This document shows, one piece after another, positions 23,115 to 28,922 of a DNA stretch of 64,000 nt. The stretch lies in assembly GCF_022846255.1 (NCBI RefSeq), contig NZ_AP025682.1; one strand, given 5' to 3'. Each line of letters opens with the position of its first letter. Within the stretch, counting starts at the first letter, position 1. Under the pieces are notes generated by a model, which worked only from the letters and a program-made list of their open reading frames with translations, did not search any database and was not told the origin of the DNA. This DNA comes from Escherichia coli (GTDB lineage Bacteria > Pseudomonadota > Gammaproteobacteria > Enterobacterales > Enterobacteriaceae). The position numbers were made by a program, and so were the translations under genes.

Positions 23115-23791
23115 GCAAATACACCGAACTAATCACGAACTACCACGCCACCAAACCTAAATTTCTTGCGCATGTTGATCTGATGACCCGGCCGCTTATT
23201 GATGCTGCGGCGGCCACCAGAGGGCTGATTACTGCATTTGATATTGACTCTGCGGTTGGTGTGCAACTTGACATTCTGGGATTGTGGATCGGACGTAGCC
23301 GTGTTGTCAGCCAGCCTATCTCAGGTGTCTATTTCAGCTGGGATACCGACGGGCTTGGATATGATCAGGGGGTATGGCAGGGACCATACGATCCTGATTC
23401 CGGATACATGTACCTCAGCGATGAAACTTATCGTGTCATTCTTAAAGCGAAGATTGCGATTAATAACTGGGATGGACGGAATGATTCGCTTCCGGCAATT
23501 CTTGACGCTGCAACAGCAGGATCCGGGCTGCGAATGCAGATAGTCGATAACCAGGACATGACGATATCGGTCTGGGTCTTTCCTGATACTGATATTTCAG
23601 ATGTATCGCGTGAGTTAATTGCGGCAATTAAACAGGGGTATCTCACAGTAAAAGCCGCCGGGGTATGGGCGGGTGGCATTGAAACACCTTCGGTGGAAAC
23701 CCCATCGGAAGGCTCAAAATTTTTTGGTTTTGATATGGATAACGAATTCATCAGTGGTTTTGATGTAGGAGCATGGGGAGTATTACTCTGA
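23111..23791 (+). CDS. Putative tail protein (Mu gp48-like), immediately upstream of tail fibre
   Basis: 226 aa; ATGA overlap with the tail-fibre start. Confidence 0.45.
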
Positions 23792-24609
23792 TGGCGAAAA
23801 ATGACTTTAAAGCGTTTGCAACGGATCGAAATGCCAATGTTATATCGCAGGAGGAATGGGAAGCGTTGCCCGCGCTTGTATCCGGATTTACAGCAGGGAA
23901 AGCCTCCAGTGCGCAAGTCAATAAGGTTATTCGGCAGGCCAGCTTTATTGCTGCAGCTCTGGCCCAGTTTGTAAGTGATAAAACGCAACGGGATGTGCTT
24001 GATAATGGTGATCTGCCCGGTTTTGTTGAATTGCTGGGATCGGGGTTTGCTGTTGAATACCTGAGCCGCAAGAATCCGTTTGGTGATATCAAATCGGATG
24101 GCACGGTGAAAACGGCTCTCGAAAACCTTGGTTTGGGAGAAGGCTCTGCATTACCTGTTGGTGTGCCTGTTCCGTGGCCCTCCGCAACCCCGCCAACGGG
24201 CTGGCTGAAATGCAACGGCGCTGCCTTTGATAAGGTGAAATATTCCCATCTTGCTACAGCATATCCATCAGGGAAACTACCTGATCTCCGTGGTGAGTTT
24301 ATTCGTGGATGGGATGACGGGCGTGGTATTGATGCAGGACGTGCTTTATTGAGCATTCAGACTGGGATGCTGGAAAAACACCGCCATATTGTTGTTGCCA
24401 ACGATGGGTATGATTCAAAAGAGGAATGGGAACTGGCGACAATCTTCAGAAGAGCATATACGCAAGGCCGGGGGCTTGATGCTGCCGATGCCGGAGGAAC
24501 TCTGATTCCATCACCAACGCTACATACACGAGGGAGTATTGGTAACACAGGTGGGAGCGAAACCCGTCCACGAAATATTGCATTTAACTATATCGTGAGA
24601 GCTGCATAA
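23791..24609 (+). CDS. Tail fibre protein: constant N-terminal part fused to variable C-terminus in the current orientation of the invertible segment
   Basis: C-terminal collar-like motif [16 protein letters not shown]; gene spans the left crossover site at 24116-24141; likely start ATG 23791 (the ORF track's ATG 23773 is in frame). Confidence 0.7.
24116..24141. repeat. Left crossover site of the invertible segment (hix/gix-like 26-bp site)
   Basis: CTCTCGAAAACC-TT-GGTTTGGGAGAA; its inner half-site is a perfect inverted repeat of 26069-26080. Confidence 0.65.
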
Positions 24610-25211
24610 TGGATAAAGCCGTATTAAATAGCGAACTTATTGCCACGAAGGCGGGGAATATTACCGTCTATAACTATGATGGTGAAACACGGGAATATAT
24701 TTCCACTTCAAATGAATATCTTGCCGTTGGTGTCGGTATCCCGGCATATTCCTGTTTAGATGCTCCTGGCACATATAAGGCTGGTTATGCAATCTGCCGT
24801 TCAGTAGATTTAAACTCATGGGAATATATGCCAGACCATCGCGGTGAAATTATCTATAGCACCGAAACAGGAGAAGCAAAAGAAATCACAGCTCCGGGTG
24901 ATTACCCTGAAAATACAACCACTATCGTCCCGTTAACGCCATATGATAAATGGGATGGTGAGAAATGGGTGACAGATTCTGAGGCACAACACGGTGCCGC
25001 AGTAGAAGCGGCAGAAGCACAGCGCCAGTCACTGATTGATGCAGCAATGGCTTCCATCGGTCTGATTCAGCTGAAATTACAGGCCGGACGGAAGCTGATG
25101 CAGGCAGAAACAACCCGGCTTAACGCTGTGCTGGATTACATTGACGCGGTGACGGCAACAAATACCAGCACAGCGCCGGATGTCATCTGGCCTGAACTGC
25201 CGGAGGCGTAG
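24609..25211 (+). CDS. Tail fibre assembly protein (U-like)
   Basis: 200 aa; ATGA-coupled to tail-fibre stop. Confidence 0.7.
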   Translation: MDKAVLNSELIATKAGNITVYNYDGETREYISTSNEYLAVGVGIPAYSCLDAPGTYKAGYAICRSVDLNSWEYMPDHRGEIIYSTETGEAKEITAPGDYPENTTTIVPLTPYDKWDGEKWVTDSEAQHGAAVEAAEAQRQSLIDAAMASIGLIQLKLQAGRKLMQAETTRLNAVLDYIDAVTATNTSTAPDVIWPELPEA

Positions 25212-25626
25212 GCCATTCAATATCTGGCGCACAGGAAGTATCGACCAGTTCCAGTGCGTCCAGATAATCCAGCCATAAATTATATTGCTCCAGCTCGTTA
25301 CCTTTCAGACGACCAATAGCAGCTTTGCCAGGCCACTGATGGGTATTGATGTAAGTATTGGCTTCTGAAACCAAAGATATTTTTTTCATTTCAGCCATCA
25401 ACACCTCATCCTCTTTTGAAGGCGGTGGGGAATTAATCCATATTGGCCGTCCTGAACTGTCAGCGCCAATTTCTTTCCCTTCTGGATGCAGCCCAAGAAA
25501 TTGCTCATATGTTTCTCGGGTAATTTCAATAACATCATCTGGAAGCGTTCCCGCATCCTCATATTCTGGAAACAATTCTTGTAGATAAAAACTTTTACTT
25601 CCGGGTGAAAAGAATACTGAGTTCAT
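25183..25626 (-). CDS. Alternative tail fibre assembly protein (U'-like)
   Basis: 147 aa on the opposite strand inside the invertible segment; 3' end converges with tfa. Confidence 0.65.
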   Translation of the reverse strand: MNSVFFSPGSKSFYLQELFPEYEDAGTLPDDVIEITRETYEQFLGLHPEGKEIGADSSGRPIWINSPPPSKEDEVLMAEMKKISLVSEANTYINTHQWPGKAAIGRLKGNELEQYNLWLDYLDALELVDTSCAPDIEWPTPPAVQAR

Positions 25627-25628
25627 TA

Positions 25629-26080
25629 TTACCGTCCAATGATTAACGCTGAGACGCTGGTATCTGAAGGAAAGGCTGCATTCAGTGGTTTGTCGACTTT
25701 GAACACAATCGTATTATTCCCCCTGACAGCGGCAAAAGAACAAACCGCAGTCGCGTATGAACCTGTAATATTACTGGATACACCACCATAAGCTGTTGTT
25801 GATACCAGAGGGATAACGCCCAGCACCTTATTAGGAAATACAAAGGGCAATGTGGCTGTGGCAATATAAGACTTATTAGAGCCTGTGATGGCATAAGCAT
25901 TATCAGTCATTCCATTCATCGCCACCGGGCCGCTTATACTTACAGTAACCATCTGAATGATTAGCCCGTCAGGTTGACGAATCACAAAATTTCCATTGCC
26001 ACCAGTAACCGTCCAGAAAGACATATCAGGGATTTGGTTTTCCCCGTTGCCCACATTCCGTTTTGCCGCTTCTCCCAAAC
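25629..26080 (-). CDS. Alternative tail-fibre variable C-terminal segment (Sv'-like); no own start, expressed only after inversion
   Basis: Open frame runs from the right crossover site; encodes GLGE at the site, matching LGLGE at the left site in the expressed fibre. The ORF-track start at 26123 lies outside the segment. Confidence 0.6.
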
Positions 26081-26094
26081 CAACGTTTATGAAA
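26069..26094. repeat. Right crossover site of the invertible segment
   Basis: TTCTCCCAAACC-AA-CGTTTATGAAAA. Confidence 0.65.
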
Positions 26095-26149
26095 ATGCAG
26101 AAATAACGAGCAAATGGCATCATTCCTGCTTTTGTCAGGGAGATCTACC

Positions 26150-26704
26150 ATGCTTATTGGCTATGTACGCGTATCAACAAATGACCAGAATACCGATCTA
26201 CAACGTAATGCGTTGAACTGTGCAGGATGCGAGCTGATTTTTGAAGACAAGATAAGCGGTACAAAGTCCGAAAGGCCGGGACTGAAAAAACTGCTCAGGA
26301 CATTATCGGCAGGTGACACTCTGGTTGTCTGGAAGCTGGATCGGCTGGGGCGTAGTATGCGGCATCTGGTCATTCTGGTTGAGGAGTTGCGCGAACGTGG
26401 CGTTAATTTTCGCAGCCTGACGGATGCTATTGATACCAGCACACCGATGGGGCGTTTTTTCTTTCATGTGATGGGGGCCCTGGCTGAAATGGAACGAGAA
26501 CTGATTGTTGAACGAACAAAAGCTGGACTGGAAGCTGCTCGCGCACAGGGACGAATTGGTGGACGTCGTCCCAAACTTACACCAGAACAATGGGCGCAGG
26601 CCGGGCGACTAATTGCATCAGGAGTTCCTCGCCAGAAGGTGGCGATCATTTATGATGTTGGCGTATCGACTTTGTATAAGAAGTTTCCGGTCGGAGATAA
26701 ATGA
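26150..26704 (+). CDS. pin: Serine-recombinase DNA invertase (Pin/Gin/Hin family)
   Basis: 184 aa from MLIGYVRVSTNDQNTDLQRNAL; catalytic Ser in VRVSTNDQ; C-terminal HTH; AGGGAG SD; adjacent to the invertible segment. Confidence 0.85.
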   Translation: MLIGYVRVSTNDQNTDLQRNALNCAGCELIFEDKISGTKSERPGLKKLLRTLSAGDTLVVWKLDRLGRSMRHLVILVEELRERGVNFRSLTDAIDTSTPMGRFFFHVMGALAEMERELIVERTKAGLEAARAQGRIGGRRPKLTPEQWAQAGRLIASGVPRQKVAIIYDVGVSTLYKKFPVGDK

Positions 26705-26784
26705 AACCGTAGCACGTCGTATGCAAGAACGTGCCACGGCTGGCTGATAAGCTTGTAAAAATATTGAACAGGGAGTGGAGCATT

Positions 26785-27432
26785 CTATGAAGCTAATTTG
26801 TTTAATTTCATTTGTAGTGACTTTACTTCTTGGTCGATAATGTCGAATCCCTTATTGACAGCATCTCTTAGCTCTGCATCAATATTTTTTATCCCTTGAG
26901 CATAATCTACCATTACATTTATTTTTGCATCATGTAATCTCTTATACATGGTTTTATCTTTGTTATTGTCTGCCATGCCAATAAGGATTTTTTCATAATC
27001 CTCAATGAGTTTGTTGTTTCCTTTAAATGATTGTATTAATGAGCGTGAATATGTGTATATGTTAATTATTGAGTCTCTAGCAGAATCATTTAGTTTTGCA
27101 ATGACATTCGCATTTTGCTCATAGAATGTGAAATTATCATCCCCTACAGGGAATGTGAGAATCAACATTTGTCCCGGTTTTATATTATCAATGTGTGTTT
27201 TCATCCTTTTATTATATAAATTGATTAGGGTGAAAACTTCTCCCTTAACTCCTTTTAATACTGAAAGTTGTAATTCAAGGGATTCTCTTTCTGTCTCTAC
27301 TTTAGACAGCTTAGCTTGTTGGGTAACTCCTTTTAGGGTAAACCATCCGCCAATAAGAGTACCAACTAGAGCTGTGAGGGAGGAGGATAACCATCCAGGT
27401 ATGCTATTTAAAAGATTACTAAATTCACTCAT
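26785..27432 (-). CDS. Hypothetical membrane-anchored protein (N-terminal TM helix plus charged helical region); cargo gene
   Basis: 215 aa; hydrophobic segment WLSSSLTALVGTLIGGWFTL then K/E-rich region; AT-rich composition unlike flanking DNA. Confidence 0.5.
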   Translation of the reverse strand: MSEFSNLLNSIPGWLSSSLTALVGTLIGGWFTLKGVTQQAKLSKVETERESLELQLSVLKGVKGEVFTLINLYNKRMKTHIDNIKPGQMLILTFPVGDDNFTFYEQNANVIAKLNDSARDSIINIYTYSRSLIQSFKGNNKLIEDYEKILIGMADNNKDKTMYKRLHDAKINVMVDYAQGIKNIDAELRDAVNKGFDIIDQEVKSLQMKLNKLAS

Positions 27433-27490
27433 TATAAGTACTCGCTAATATTGAACGATATATATATCAAATTATTATAAAACTCGTCAG

Positions 27491-27769
27491 CTACTGGAGC
27501 AGGCTACCTGAACTTCGATCTATTCCTGCATCCATATAGTTGATGGTCTTCTGGAGCTCTTCGATTAGGGCAACAGCTTTTGCTCGAGAAATGCATATTA
27601 GTTGATCCGGAAATTCTTGTAAGGGCCAGTTTGGTATACAGGCCATGTTATCAGTGAAGGATGCAGACAAGTAAACTTCATTGGTAACCAGAGAATAGCT
27701 TACCTCAAAATTGGTGAGTTCCGGCAAACTGCTAACGTTTGACTCTTTTCTGCGCATAATATTATCCAT
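27491..27769 (-). CDS. Hypothetical small protein (cargo gene; start uncertain, ORF could extend to 27919)
   Basis: 92 aa from MDNIMRRKE; the longer 142-aa frame includes a PPP stretch encoded by a C10/G10 tract; no strong SD at either start. Confidence 0.35.
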   Translation of the reverse strand: MDNIMRRKESNVSSLPELTNFEVSYSLVTNEVYLSASFTDNMACIPNWPLQEFPDQLICISRAKAVALIEELQKTINYMDAGIDRSSGSLLQ

Positions 27770-27851
27770 GACTGTAATTATGTACAGGTGATGGTCTTCA
27801 ATTTCGAAGAGGGAGTCAAGGGGGAGTCTCAAATGAACCGTTATAGAAAAA

Positions 27852-27861
27852 GGGGGGGGGG
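27852..27861. repeat. Homopolymeric tract G10 (C10 on the coding strand of the cargo gene)
   Basis: Ten consecutive G at 27852-27861. Confidence 0.9.
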
Positions 27862-28073
27862 ATCTTTGTGTTGCTGAACTTATGCAAAATTTTTTTGCAC
27901 CATAAATCCAACAACACATTCAATAACACATTGCTGTATCACTATGAAAATAAATGTGTTTTTATTTGATTTCACACATATCACAATTGATGCATTTTTT
28001 AGTGATTAACAGCGCCATAAGGAAACTCTCAAAACAACACAAACCGGGCGGGCATTATACGCGCATTCTTTAC

Positions 28074-28922
28074 TCAGACCAGTTTTTTCACCAGCGCTTC
28101 GCTATGACGAATACGTTCTGGTGCCAGTTCCAGATCCTGCTGAATCAGCGCAATGAACAGCAAATCCGTTAACATTCCCTGCGCGTGACAAGCAGAGATT
28201 GAAGCACTGTTTGTCGCTTGTTCTTCGGCAATGGTATACAGGCAATGAGAAGCACGCTGTTGCAGGGCATTGGGAGTAAAGCCGGTAATAGCCAGCACTT
28301 TTCCGCCCACTCGCAGCATCTCATCTGCCGCCAGGTTTAACTCGCGTCGTACACCGGTGTAGGAAATGGCTAATAACAGATCGTCAGGGGACGACGCCTG
28401 TACTGTAGCGAGTAGCGCATGCATATCGCGCACTGCGGCAGCATTGAAGCCAATCTTCATCAGCTTCCAGGCAAAGTTTTGCGCCACCAGACCCGAAGCG
28501 CCAATACCGGTCAGAATTATCCGCCGCGCAGAGCGCAACATTGCCACGCATTCATGCAGTTTCTCTTCACTATTAACGTTTAACGTTGCGTACATAGCGG
28601 CAGTATTTTCTTTAATCAGTTTTTCGCCGACCAGCCGTAACGGATCATCACCGCGGATTTGGTTATGAATGGGCACGGAGGGAGATTCCGGCTGGCTTGC
28701 CAGCGCTTCACTCAACGCCAACTTTAGTGCCGGAAAACCTTTATAGCCGAGTTTTTGCGCGAACTTCACGACGCTGGATTGACTGACTCCGGCTTCGTTG
28801 GCCAGTTGCTGAGAGCTTAAATGGCGCGCCGTATCAGGTTGTAGCAGCAGATAATCCGCCAGTTTTTTATCACTCTGGGCAAGCCCCTGGTAACGCTGAC
28901 GGATACGAAGTAAGCCGTTCAT
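28074..28922 (-). CDS. yfhH: RpiR/SIS-family transcriptional regulator YfhH
   Basis: 282 aa from MNGLLRIRQRY; N-terminal HTH, SIS domain (ILTGIGASGLVAQ); conserved context next to pgpC-tadA-mltF-purL. Confidence 0.8.
   Translation of the reverse strand: MNGLLRIRQRYQGLAQSDKKLADYLLLQPDTARHLSSQQLANEAGVSQSSVVKFAQKLGYKGFPALKLALSEALASQPESPSVPIHNQIRGDDPLRLVGEKLIKENTAAMYATLNVNSEEKLHECVAMLRSARRIILTGIGASGLVAQNFAWKLMKIGFNAAAVRDMHALLATVQASSPDDLLLAISYTGVRRELNLAADEMLRVGGKVLAITGFTPNALQQRASHCLYTIAEEQATNSASISACHAQGMLTDLLFIALIQQDLELAPERIRHSEALVKKLV

Follow-up and report, generated by a model that had tools for sequence, protein, structure and literature searches.

We examined a short AT-rich region of an Escherichia coli chromosome that lies between the DNA invertase gene pin and the chromosomal gene yfhH, at positions 26705 to 28073 of a 64,000-nucleotide stretch (referred to as the window) of NCBI RefSeq assembly GCF_022846255.1, contig NZ_AP025682.1. 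A preliminary description of this region had reported two minus-strand genes and had read them as an AT-rich cargo cassette, possibly a defense or exclusion module. Both genes are present in the open reading frame (ORF) list, at 26785-27432 (215 amino acids [aa]; ORF-A here) and at 27491-27919 in its longest reading (142 aa; ORF-B here). The reported base composition also held, with a sliding GC content of 0.32 to 0.38 across 26705-28073 against about 0.5 on both flanks. ORF-A has a GC content of 33.2%, compared with 51.4% for the prophage part and 52.9% for the chromosomal part of the window; since ORF-B, at 43.4%, is only mildly AT-rich, the anomaly is due mainly to ORF-A. The account that best explains the locus combines two unrelated genes, an ORF-B that belongs to the backbone of a prophage and an ORF-A that would be exclusion-type cargo. 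We hold this account as a whole tentatively, at a little short of an even chance, and its anatomical part (the gene structure, the boundaries, the variability of the slot, and the independence of the two genes) with high confidence.

The right side of the window carries E. coli yfhH-pgpC-tadA-mltF-purL, according to the RefSeq annotation of identical DNA. Alignment against the uninterrupted yfhH-yfhL region of K-12 placed the phage/host junction at 27970/27971, inside yfhL, which encodes a putative 4Fe-4S protein. Identity to K-12 runs from yfhH through the first 16 yfhL codons (MALLITKKCINCDMCE) and breaks between 27971 and 27970. The same alignment shows that yfhL survives as a minus-strand stump of 18 codons (27962-28017), which reads MALLITKKCINCDMCE followed by IK and a stop codon (…CDMCE-IK-stop) and is fused to phage sequence. 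The alignment indicates that the prophage is inserted in yfhL and, because the junction falls within that gene, that ORF-A and ORF-B are both prophage DNA. The two genes had been placed beyond the last phage gene and ahead of yfhH, a position that these borders correct, and the disruption of yfhL had been missed. yfhL has been mentioned together with prophage integration in the literature. The backbone of the prophage resembles that of the phiP27/SEN34 (Brunovirus)-like myoviruses and includes DUF1073, DUF2213, DUF2184, DUF4054, DUF3383, DUF3277, and baseplate J genes, followed by invertible tail-fiber genes and pin. The left attachment site (attL) lies outside the window.

In order to define which DNA is exchanged at this end of the prophage, sister prophages at the same yfhL site were compared by blastn. 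Homology with a variant-2 prophage (locus L018) extends to 26410 and resumes at 27476, with 26411-27475 lost; homology with a variant-3 prophage (locus L020) extends to 26751 and resumes at 27863, with 26752-27862 lost. The only segment specific to the present variant is a 724-bp cassette at 26752-27475 (32.6% GC, minus strand), which holds ORF-A together with 33 nt downstream and 43 nt upstream. The cassette is variable among related prophages, as the preliminary description had proposed to check, and the exchanged part is ORF-A only. Among 5,426 complete E. coli genomes, ORF-A was found in 79, always as a single copy and always at this site; ORF-B was found in 120 and the arm next to the attachment (att) site in 153. 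Approximately 41 genomes (L018 type) carry a truncated pin, a 281-aa gene, and ORF-B without ORF-A. Approximately 33 others (L020 type) carry pinE followed by genes for a 53-aa protein, a DUF2335 protein, and a 108-aa protein, without ORF-B. The 281-aa alternative cargo (L018 2854-3699; WP_001039127.1), whose insertion removed the 3' half of pin, encodes a protein for which Pfam, PHROGs, and PADLOC all gave no match. PHROGs assigns the DUF2335 and 53-aa proteins to membrane-protein families filed under "moron," and none of the alternative cargo genes of the slot matches a PADLOC defense model.

The same slot was followed in more distant relatives by way of ORF-B. Salmonella relatives carry ORF-B at the prophage edge with an O-antigen acetylase gene next door; phage SEN34 has an acetylase in the slot as well, and its ORF-B adjoins attP and the integrase gene. 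In Citrobacter the slot is empty, and ORF-B abuts the resolvase/invertase gene with nothing between. In the E. coli phages vB_EcoM-606R2, 611R5, and 683R1, ORF-B stands beside a different, 281-aa gene. The slot therefore has at least three contents in E. coli, an acetylase in Salmonella, and none in Citrobacter. Prophage e14 has the order pinE-mcrA-attR, the same layout of pin, cargo, and att as in the window, so the analogy to e14 from which a known cargo slot had been proposed is sound. Present in some but not all close relatives, at one position and with deviant composition, ORF-A is in these two respects a moron. The locus is a clean natural example of a cargo slot, in which a constant backbone and site accommodate at least three cargoes and an empty state.

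ORF-B, in contrast to ORF-A, is a conserved terminal backbone gene of phiP27/SEN34-like prophages that is independent of the neighboring cargo, and it accompanies the tail and att module across differing immunity regions. The preliminary description had put the small protein at about 92 to 142 aa; the gene is real, but it is shorter than that. Homologues in Salmonella, Citrobacter, and Escherichia are all 87 to 88 aa long, PHROG 17793 (annotated as function unknown) covers only residues 55 to 142 of the long ORF (E=3e-44), and the longer calls cross a variable poly-C tract. For these reasons we assign ORF-B to 27491-27757 on the minus strand, encoding an acidic (pI 4.6), soluble protein of 88 aa. 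The poly-C tract (27852-27861, minus strand) consists of 10 C residues followed by a T run and lies about 95 nt 5' of ORF-B. In near-identical prophages it has 10, 9, 8, or 7 C residues and the adjoining T run varies from 4 to 6, and in the variant-2 lineage the sequence is CTCCCC. This variation in length accounts for the inconsistent ORF-B gene calls of 140 to 145 aa. The tract could act as a slipped-strand switch for the expression of ORF-B and ORF-A, or it could merely be hypermutable.

A LexA-type SOS box, CTGT-N8-ACAG, is located at 27772-27787, 15 to 30 nt 5' of the ORF-B start codon. It is the sole exact match in the window; as one chance match in 64 kb is not unlikely, it is the position and the conservation of the box that count. 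Alignment of the upstream regions across lineages revealed a conserved CTGT-N8-(A/C)CAG 15 to 30 nt before the ORF-B start, and the box occupied the same offset in all 11 loci checked for its position (E. coli, Salmonella, Citrobacter, and phage SEN34). The same CTGT-N8-ACAG pattern recovered the known SOS operators before umuD and dinI in other loci. The upstream alignment also contains an invariant TTGACT hexamer (27814-27819, minus strand), which lies 5' of the box, resembles a -35 sequence, and may be a promoter element. These observations suggest that ORF-B is probably controlled by LexA and induced by the SOS response. An SOS-controlled function at the prophage end, which the box suggests, has not been described for the phiP27/SEN34-like group.

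LexA-controlled prophage genes include tum of phage 186 and the antirepressor genes of the Gifsy prophages. ORF-B resembles these in being small and acidic and in lying away from the immunity region, at a prophage end and behind a CTGT-N8-ACAG box. In addition, the repressor of SEN34 is a 127-aa helix-turn-helix (HTH) protein without an S24 autocleavage domain, as expected of phages induced by antirepressors. ORF-B differs from these genes in that it matches only a PHROG of unassigned function, and a PHROGs search showed no homology to any named antirepressor. Moreover, vB_EcoM-611R5, an E. coli relative that carries ORF-B, has a repressor with a Peptidase_S24 domain that is presumably self-cleaving, so an antirepressor would not be required there. 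An antirepressor or another induction-linked function is thus possible for ORF-B. The structure model of the protein is of moderate quality, with a predicted local distance difference test score (pLDDT) of 76 and scores of 55 to 60 for the other four models. Excisionases are typically basic, and an excisionase role was considered unlikely, by inference from the acidity of the protein.

The distribution of the two genes bears directly on the proposal that ORF-B and ORF-A are one horizontally acquired two-gene system, for defense or exclusion, whose two parts act together. They have the same orientation, both are unannotated, and the 58-nt gap between them contains no terminator-like site. However, ORF-B occurs without ORF-A in the approximately 41 E. 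coli genomes mentioned above, in Salmonella, in Citrobacter, and in phage SEN34, so that across three genera it accompanies other cargo or none. Conversely, no ORF-B accompanies the ORF-A homologues in any of the other contexts examined. The genes differ in GC content (33% against 43%), and the segment swapped between prophage variants comprises only ORF-A. We therefore regard a two-gene system as highly improbable. Separate horizontal acquisition, which had been suggested for both genes, holds for ORF-A, with its low GC content and its place in the variable segment; ORF-B is conserved backbone. Conservation of both proteins as core components in all related prophages had been named as an outcome that would contradict a cargo module; half of that outcome is observed, in that ORF-B is conserved and ORF-A is not. 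The initial observation is thus confirmed in part, and its interpretation is supported in part.

ORF-A is named "hypothetical protein" in RefSeq. The ratio of nonsynonymous to synonymous substitution rates (dN/dS) was 0.04 to 0.07 among E. coli alleles and 0.10 to 0.17 between genera, where dS is saturated. In all, 216 full-length homologues of approximately 215 to 223 aa, with 60 to 75% identity, were found across the Enterobacterales, in Dickeya, Salmonella, Enterobacter, Yersinia, Serratia, Providencia, Morganella, Proteus, Klebsiella, Citrobacter, Pantoea, and other genera. They too carry only the name "hypothetical protein," and Pfam recognizes no domain in any of them. When 1.84 billion cluster representatives (clusters at 50% identity) were searched with a profile, 663 clusters matched at E≤1e-3, of which 256 reached E≤1e-10, most of the matches being stand-alone proteins of about 200 aa. 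The low dN/dS values and the many homologues indicate that ORF-A is a real gene, and the former that it is under strong purifying selection. The bare RefSeq name, the truncated versions of 139 to 142 aa in some lineages (e.g., O55:H7), and the frameshifted pin of some carriers would be in keeping with an ORF that is spurious or in decay and belongs to AT-rich junk where the prophage end is degraded. The low dN/dS of 0.04 to 0.17, the full length kept across genera, the many invariant columns, the confident structure model described below, and the hundreds of family clusters all contradict this reading, and we give it almost no weight.

The preliminary description had recognized no known-family motif, and in line with this ORF-A and ORF-B match no Pfam, NCBIfam, or PADLOC family; PADLOC (PADLOC-DB v2.0), which had been suggested as a check on the locus, returned no defense model for either of them even at E≤1. 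The best PHROG match of ORF-A was no better than E=0.088. A search of 46 family members gave no Pfam match, DUF4760 (PF15956) included. A second profile search, built on an alignment of distant relatives, recovered no named relative, only proteins called "hypothetical protein" without a Pfam domain, and a profile search of PDB sequences produced noise only. Nothing useful was found in the literature on WP_001288820, G2583_3093, or DUF4760. ORF-A thus founds or belongs to a large family that Pfam, NCBIfam, PHROGs, and PADLOC have missed.

ORF-A was modeled with AlphaFold2 from the family alignment (mean pLDDT, 84; predicted template modeling score, 0.72). The pLDDT exceeded 90 for most of residues 45 to 215 and was about 50 for the first 40 residues. 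The model consists of a long helix that leads from the hydrophobic N terminus, an ordered loop with an invariant FP(V/I)GDDNFTFYE motif, and two further long helices, and the conserved part is predicted to form a domain like a four-helix bundle. The N-terminal segment contains a predicted glycine-rich membrane helix (approximately residues 14 to 34). Averaged over 125 family representatives, the 15 residues before this helix contain 0.4 lysines and arginines, against 3.1 in the 15 residues after it, and the positive-inside rule places the N terminus outside and the C terminus inside in 116 of the 125; the other observation of this kind is an extra signal-like N-terminal segment in 9 of them. 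From this charge skew and these segments we infer an N-out/C-in topology, which would place the conserved domain in the cytoplasm. Within the helix, close homologues show no variation at G24, G28, or G29, and a small-xxx-G motif is present in 105 of the 125 representatives. The invariance of these glycines and the frequency of the motif suggest that the glycine-zipper-like helix packs against another helix and is not a passive anchor. When the family is taken at its widest, E65 and F101 are the only invariant residues, and Y73, Y126, N139, N140, and Y177 are nearly so. As no catalytic constellation of residues is conserved in the family, we read ORF-A as a putative binding or scaffold protein and not an enzyme.

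Structural similarity to annotated proteins was limited to the level of the fold. DUF4760 (PF15956), itself uncharacterized, resembles ORF-A in fold only, there being no Pfam HMM match in ORF-A or in the 46 family members. Sequence identity of ORF-A to DUF4760 and to 4HB_MCP-type bundles is 14 to 21%. The 4HB_MCP bundles of chemoreceptors are periplasmic and lie between two membrane helices, whereas the bundle of ORF-A is predicted to be cytoplasmic and has no Pfam match.

We then considered where ORF-A homologues reside. They occur singly and keep a GC content of 32 to 36% in hosts of 39 to 59%, and in many of them some 120 nt of upstream sequence are conserved although the surroundings are otherwise unrelated. 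This constant composition and the shared upstream region in unrelated settings give the homologues the look of a self-contained mobile gene unit. Twenty related loci were found in IMG/VR. In P2-like phages, a homologue lies between the tail-completion genes R and S and the baseplate gene V, the site of the nonessential orf30 of P2. P2 Orf30 itself was ruled out as a relative, as tblastn of ORF-A against deposited phages, P2 included, gave no match. In a P2-like phage the homologue is found between gpA and the portal gene Q and adjoins a PifA-like gene (PADLOC PifA, E=1.7e-65). At L039 7161-9302 the ORF-A homologue is followed by a gene for a 713-aa protein, the N-terminal half of which matches PADLOC PifA. 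PifA is the T7-exclusion protein of the F plasmid; the two genes in L039 could be a functional pair or mere neighbors in a hotspot. The gpA-gpQ interval is a hotspot of antiviral systems in P2-like phages (PMC9122126).

In lambdoid prophages of Providencia, the homologue comes directly after cI (Peptidase_S24) and a gene with an HSDR_N domain, in a position like that of lambda rexAB. The HSDR_N-domain gene (L009-L012 6715-7872) encodes a nuclease-like protein of 385 aa, stands between cI and the ORF-A homologue, and has no PADLOC match; in the rexA/rexB position of lambda, it is another exclusion candidate. Morganella prophages carry a homologue directly after tail gene J, followed by umuDC, and a homologue also adjoins umuC-like and SRAP genes near an integrase gene. 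Outside such prophages, a homologue was found in Dickeya in a region resembling an integrative and conjugative element (ICE) with ccdAB and IS110, and in Enterobacter in a small chromosomal islet beside higBA. A paralogue with 31% identity is carried by nonmobilizable IncFIB plasmids of about 110 kb that contain phage-type genes, and other paralogous subfamilies are found in a satellite-like element with integrase, helicase, and major capsid genes and at the edges of small integrated elements. Two distant relatives are on contigs too short to give context or have unannotated neighbors.

Taken together, these data make ORF-A a single-gene, AT-rich accessory moron dropped into the slot between pin and ORF-B, whose family moves on its own among accessory slots of unrelated mobile elements. 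The protein would be tethered to the inner membrane with its four-helix bundle on the cytoplasmic face and would act without catalysis. The lysogen would gain either superinfection exclusion, in which the genomes of incoming phages are kept from entering the cell, or abortive infection, in which the protein senses an infection and then perturbs the membrane. Because of the slots that the homologues occupy, an anti-phage benefit appears to be the most likely one. Exclusion or abortive infection as the function of ORF-A is suggested by genomic context; we offer it as a serious candidate that has somewhat more chance of being wrong than right.

Several known systems bear comparison with ORF-A. 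Like orf30 and old/tin of P2 and rexAB after cI in lambda, ORF-A is a single AT-rich accessory gene in a recombination-prone slot, present in only some relatives. Its homologues occupy the very same positions (the P2 S-V slot, the gpA-gpQ hotspot, and the site downstream of cI). Judged by the tblastn search of deposited phages and by the PHROG and PADLOC searches, ORF-A has no sequence relationship to the known genes of these slots (mcrA, orf30, old/tin, and rexAB). Small inner-membrane proteins that act in superinfection exclusion or abortive infection include SieA and SieB of P22, Imm of T4, gp15 of HK97, RexB of lambda, and the lactococcal AbiP. ORF-A is likewise small and prophage borne, lacks an enzymatic motif, and is predicted to be anchored in the inner membrane, as would be expected of a protein that blocks DNA entry or collapses the membrane. 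ORF-A differs from these proteins in its single, weakly hydrophobic helix, in its large and conserved four-helix bundle of predicted cytoplasmic location, and in having no annotated PHROG match in the hidden Markov model searches, in which the exclusion families were included.

Several observations weigh against an anti-phage role. ORF-A and 10 of its distant relatives match no PADLOC model (for the relatives, noise only, at E>0.003) and no annotated PHROG family, the exclusion families included. No copy of ORF-A was detected by tblastn in 50,697 deposited phage genomes, and the BFVD set of viral structures contained no match at E≤0.001. The fold matches are to four-helix bundles and are generic. 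The N-terminal membrane helix that the preliminary description had noted in the 215-aa protein was predicted here also, but in this allele it is weakly hydrophobic (Kyte-Doolittle score of 1.35, compared with 1.63 to 2.12 in relatives) and falls where confidence in the model is low. Most immediate neighbors of the homologues elsewhere are unannotated, which makes any "defense neighborhood" anecdotal.

A benefit unrelated to phages also has to be weighed. ORF-A could have an envelope or stress function, interfere with conjugation or the entry of other elements, or stabilize the element that carries it. The occurrence of the family in an ICE-like region, on plasmids, and in a chromosomal islet by toxin-antitoxin genes is in line with this reading, as are the lack of a defense-model match and the nature of the interpretable slot occupants in relatives, which, McrA of e14 aside, are an O-antigen acetylase and small membrane "moron" proteins. 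Against it, ORF-A recurs in the classic slots of exclusion genes, after cI, in gpA-gpQ by a PifA-like gene, and next to pin in the manner of e14 mcrA, and nothing points positively to another function. We consider a benefit of this kind a doubtful explanation that nonetheless deserves attention.

The expression of ORF-A in this window raises a further alternative. The AT-rich spacer between ORF-B and ORF-A (27433-27490, minus strand; 58 nt, of which approximately 43 nt belong to the cassette) contains no terminator-like site and no consensus promoter. The upstream region of about 120 nt that many homologues share, with its promoter-like sites, is missing here. A typical moron has its own promoter and terminator, and neither is evident around ORF-A in this window. 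Under the proposed mechanism, ORF-A expression would here follow that of ORF-B and rise on DNA damage. Because the upstream region is lost and the gene lies 58 nt behind an SOS-box gene with no terminator between them, ORF-A may be expressed at induction and not during lysogeny, which may fit a classical lysogen-protecting gene less well and counts as a further point against the exclusion function.

Cotranscribed with ORF-B, ORF-A could instead serve the induction or lytic program of the phage itself, for example in the timing of lysis or in blocking reinfection of the induced cell. The LexA box before ORF-B, the lack of a terminator or consensus promoter between the genes, and the truncated upstream region of the cassette are what such a role would predict. 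However, sister prophages manage without ORF-A, so the phage cycle does not depend on it. Homologues elsewhere are preceded by a conserved upstream region of their own, the other loci checked show no LexA-type box near them, and some homologues reside in nonphage contexts. A role in the phage's own program is accordingly an unlikely one.

An exclusion-type cargo gene remains our preferred reading of ORF-A. In its most extended form, ORF-A would found a new and widespread single-gene anti-phage family, in which a glycine-zipper anchor holds a cytoplasmic bundle that senses or blocks phage. The gene would travel as a unit of about 0.8 kb that hops among hotspots of P2-like, lambdoid, and phiP27-like prophages, satellites, phage-plasmids, and ICEs, and its capture behind an SOS-controlled gene in this prophage would make protection increase on induction or damage. 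We think it doubtful that this extended form holds in full.

The remaining features of the locus are part of the phage backbone or of the chromosome. pin (pinE; RefSeq site-specific DNA recombinase) bounds the cargo slot on the left and is not itself part of the cargo. Its ORF spans 26114-26704 on the plus strand, and the likely start at MLIGYVRVST gives a coding sequence of 26150-26704. Upstream of it is an invertible tail-fiber module (23773-26123), with fiber and assembly genes on the plus strand (23773-25211) and, facing them on the minus strand (25183-26123), an alternative assembly gene and fiber C terminus, directly after which comes pin. The G segment of Mu, the C segment of P1, and the P segment of e14 have the same layout of an invertible module followed by an invertase gene. 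The short element 3' of pin (26705-26751) is phage backbone, as the homology with the variant-3 prophage up to 26751 indicates. A piece of 35 to 46 nt of it matches phiP27 and many Shiga toxin (Stx) phages, and dozens of Stx-converting phages carry, close to the ends of their genomes, a 35-nt stretch with 100% identity to it. A partial Rfam match to CssrB, a Shigella chromosomal small RNA (sRNA), covers 26682-26738 on the plus strand, spanning the pin stop codon and about 47 nt beyond it (31.7 bits, below the gathering score of 76). The element may be a common terminator or an sRNA-like element. In the att-proximal arm, a perfect palindrome read from the sequence (TGCAAAAAAATTTTGCA, 27883-27899) is kept in all three E. 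coli prophage variants and could form a weak hairpin or serve in recombination or in the binding of a host factor. On the chromosomal side, yfhH (28074-28922, minus strand; RefSeq annotation and ORF list) is the first gene left intact; it is transcribed toward the prophage end, and along this path, on which transcription from yfhH and the yfhL stump points into the prophage, a search for terminator-like sites found none. In the related phage vB_EcoM-611R5, an early-region gene (L061 3105-3866) is annotated as encoding a TIR-like domain protein; the corresponding part of the prophage lies outside the window.

The locus is familiar by kind, a prophage moron in a hotspot, and is built from an unfamiliar protein family. 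ORF-A is a well-defined candidate, yet it is one among very many unannotated prophage accessory genes, and if it has no phage phenotype it would be an ordinary gene of that class. The SOS box before ORF-B offers a handle on how phiP27/SEN34-like prophages are coupled to DNA damage. If ORF-A does exclude phages, a family of hundreds of clusters in the Proteobacteria and beyond would join the single-gene defenses, and its presence would help to explain differences in phage susceptibility among the pathogenic E. coli lineages that carry this prophage (enterotoxigenic E. coli H10407, O103:H2, O45:H2, O55:H7, and IAI1).

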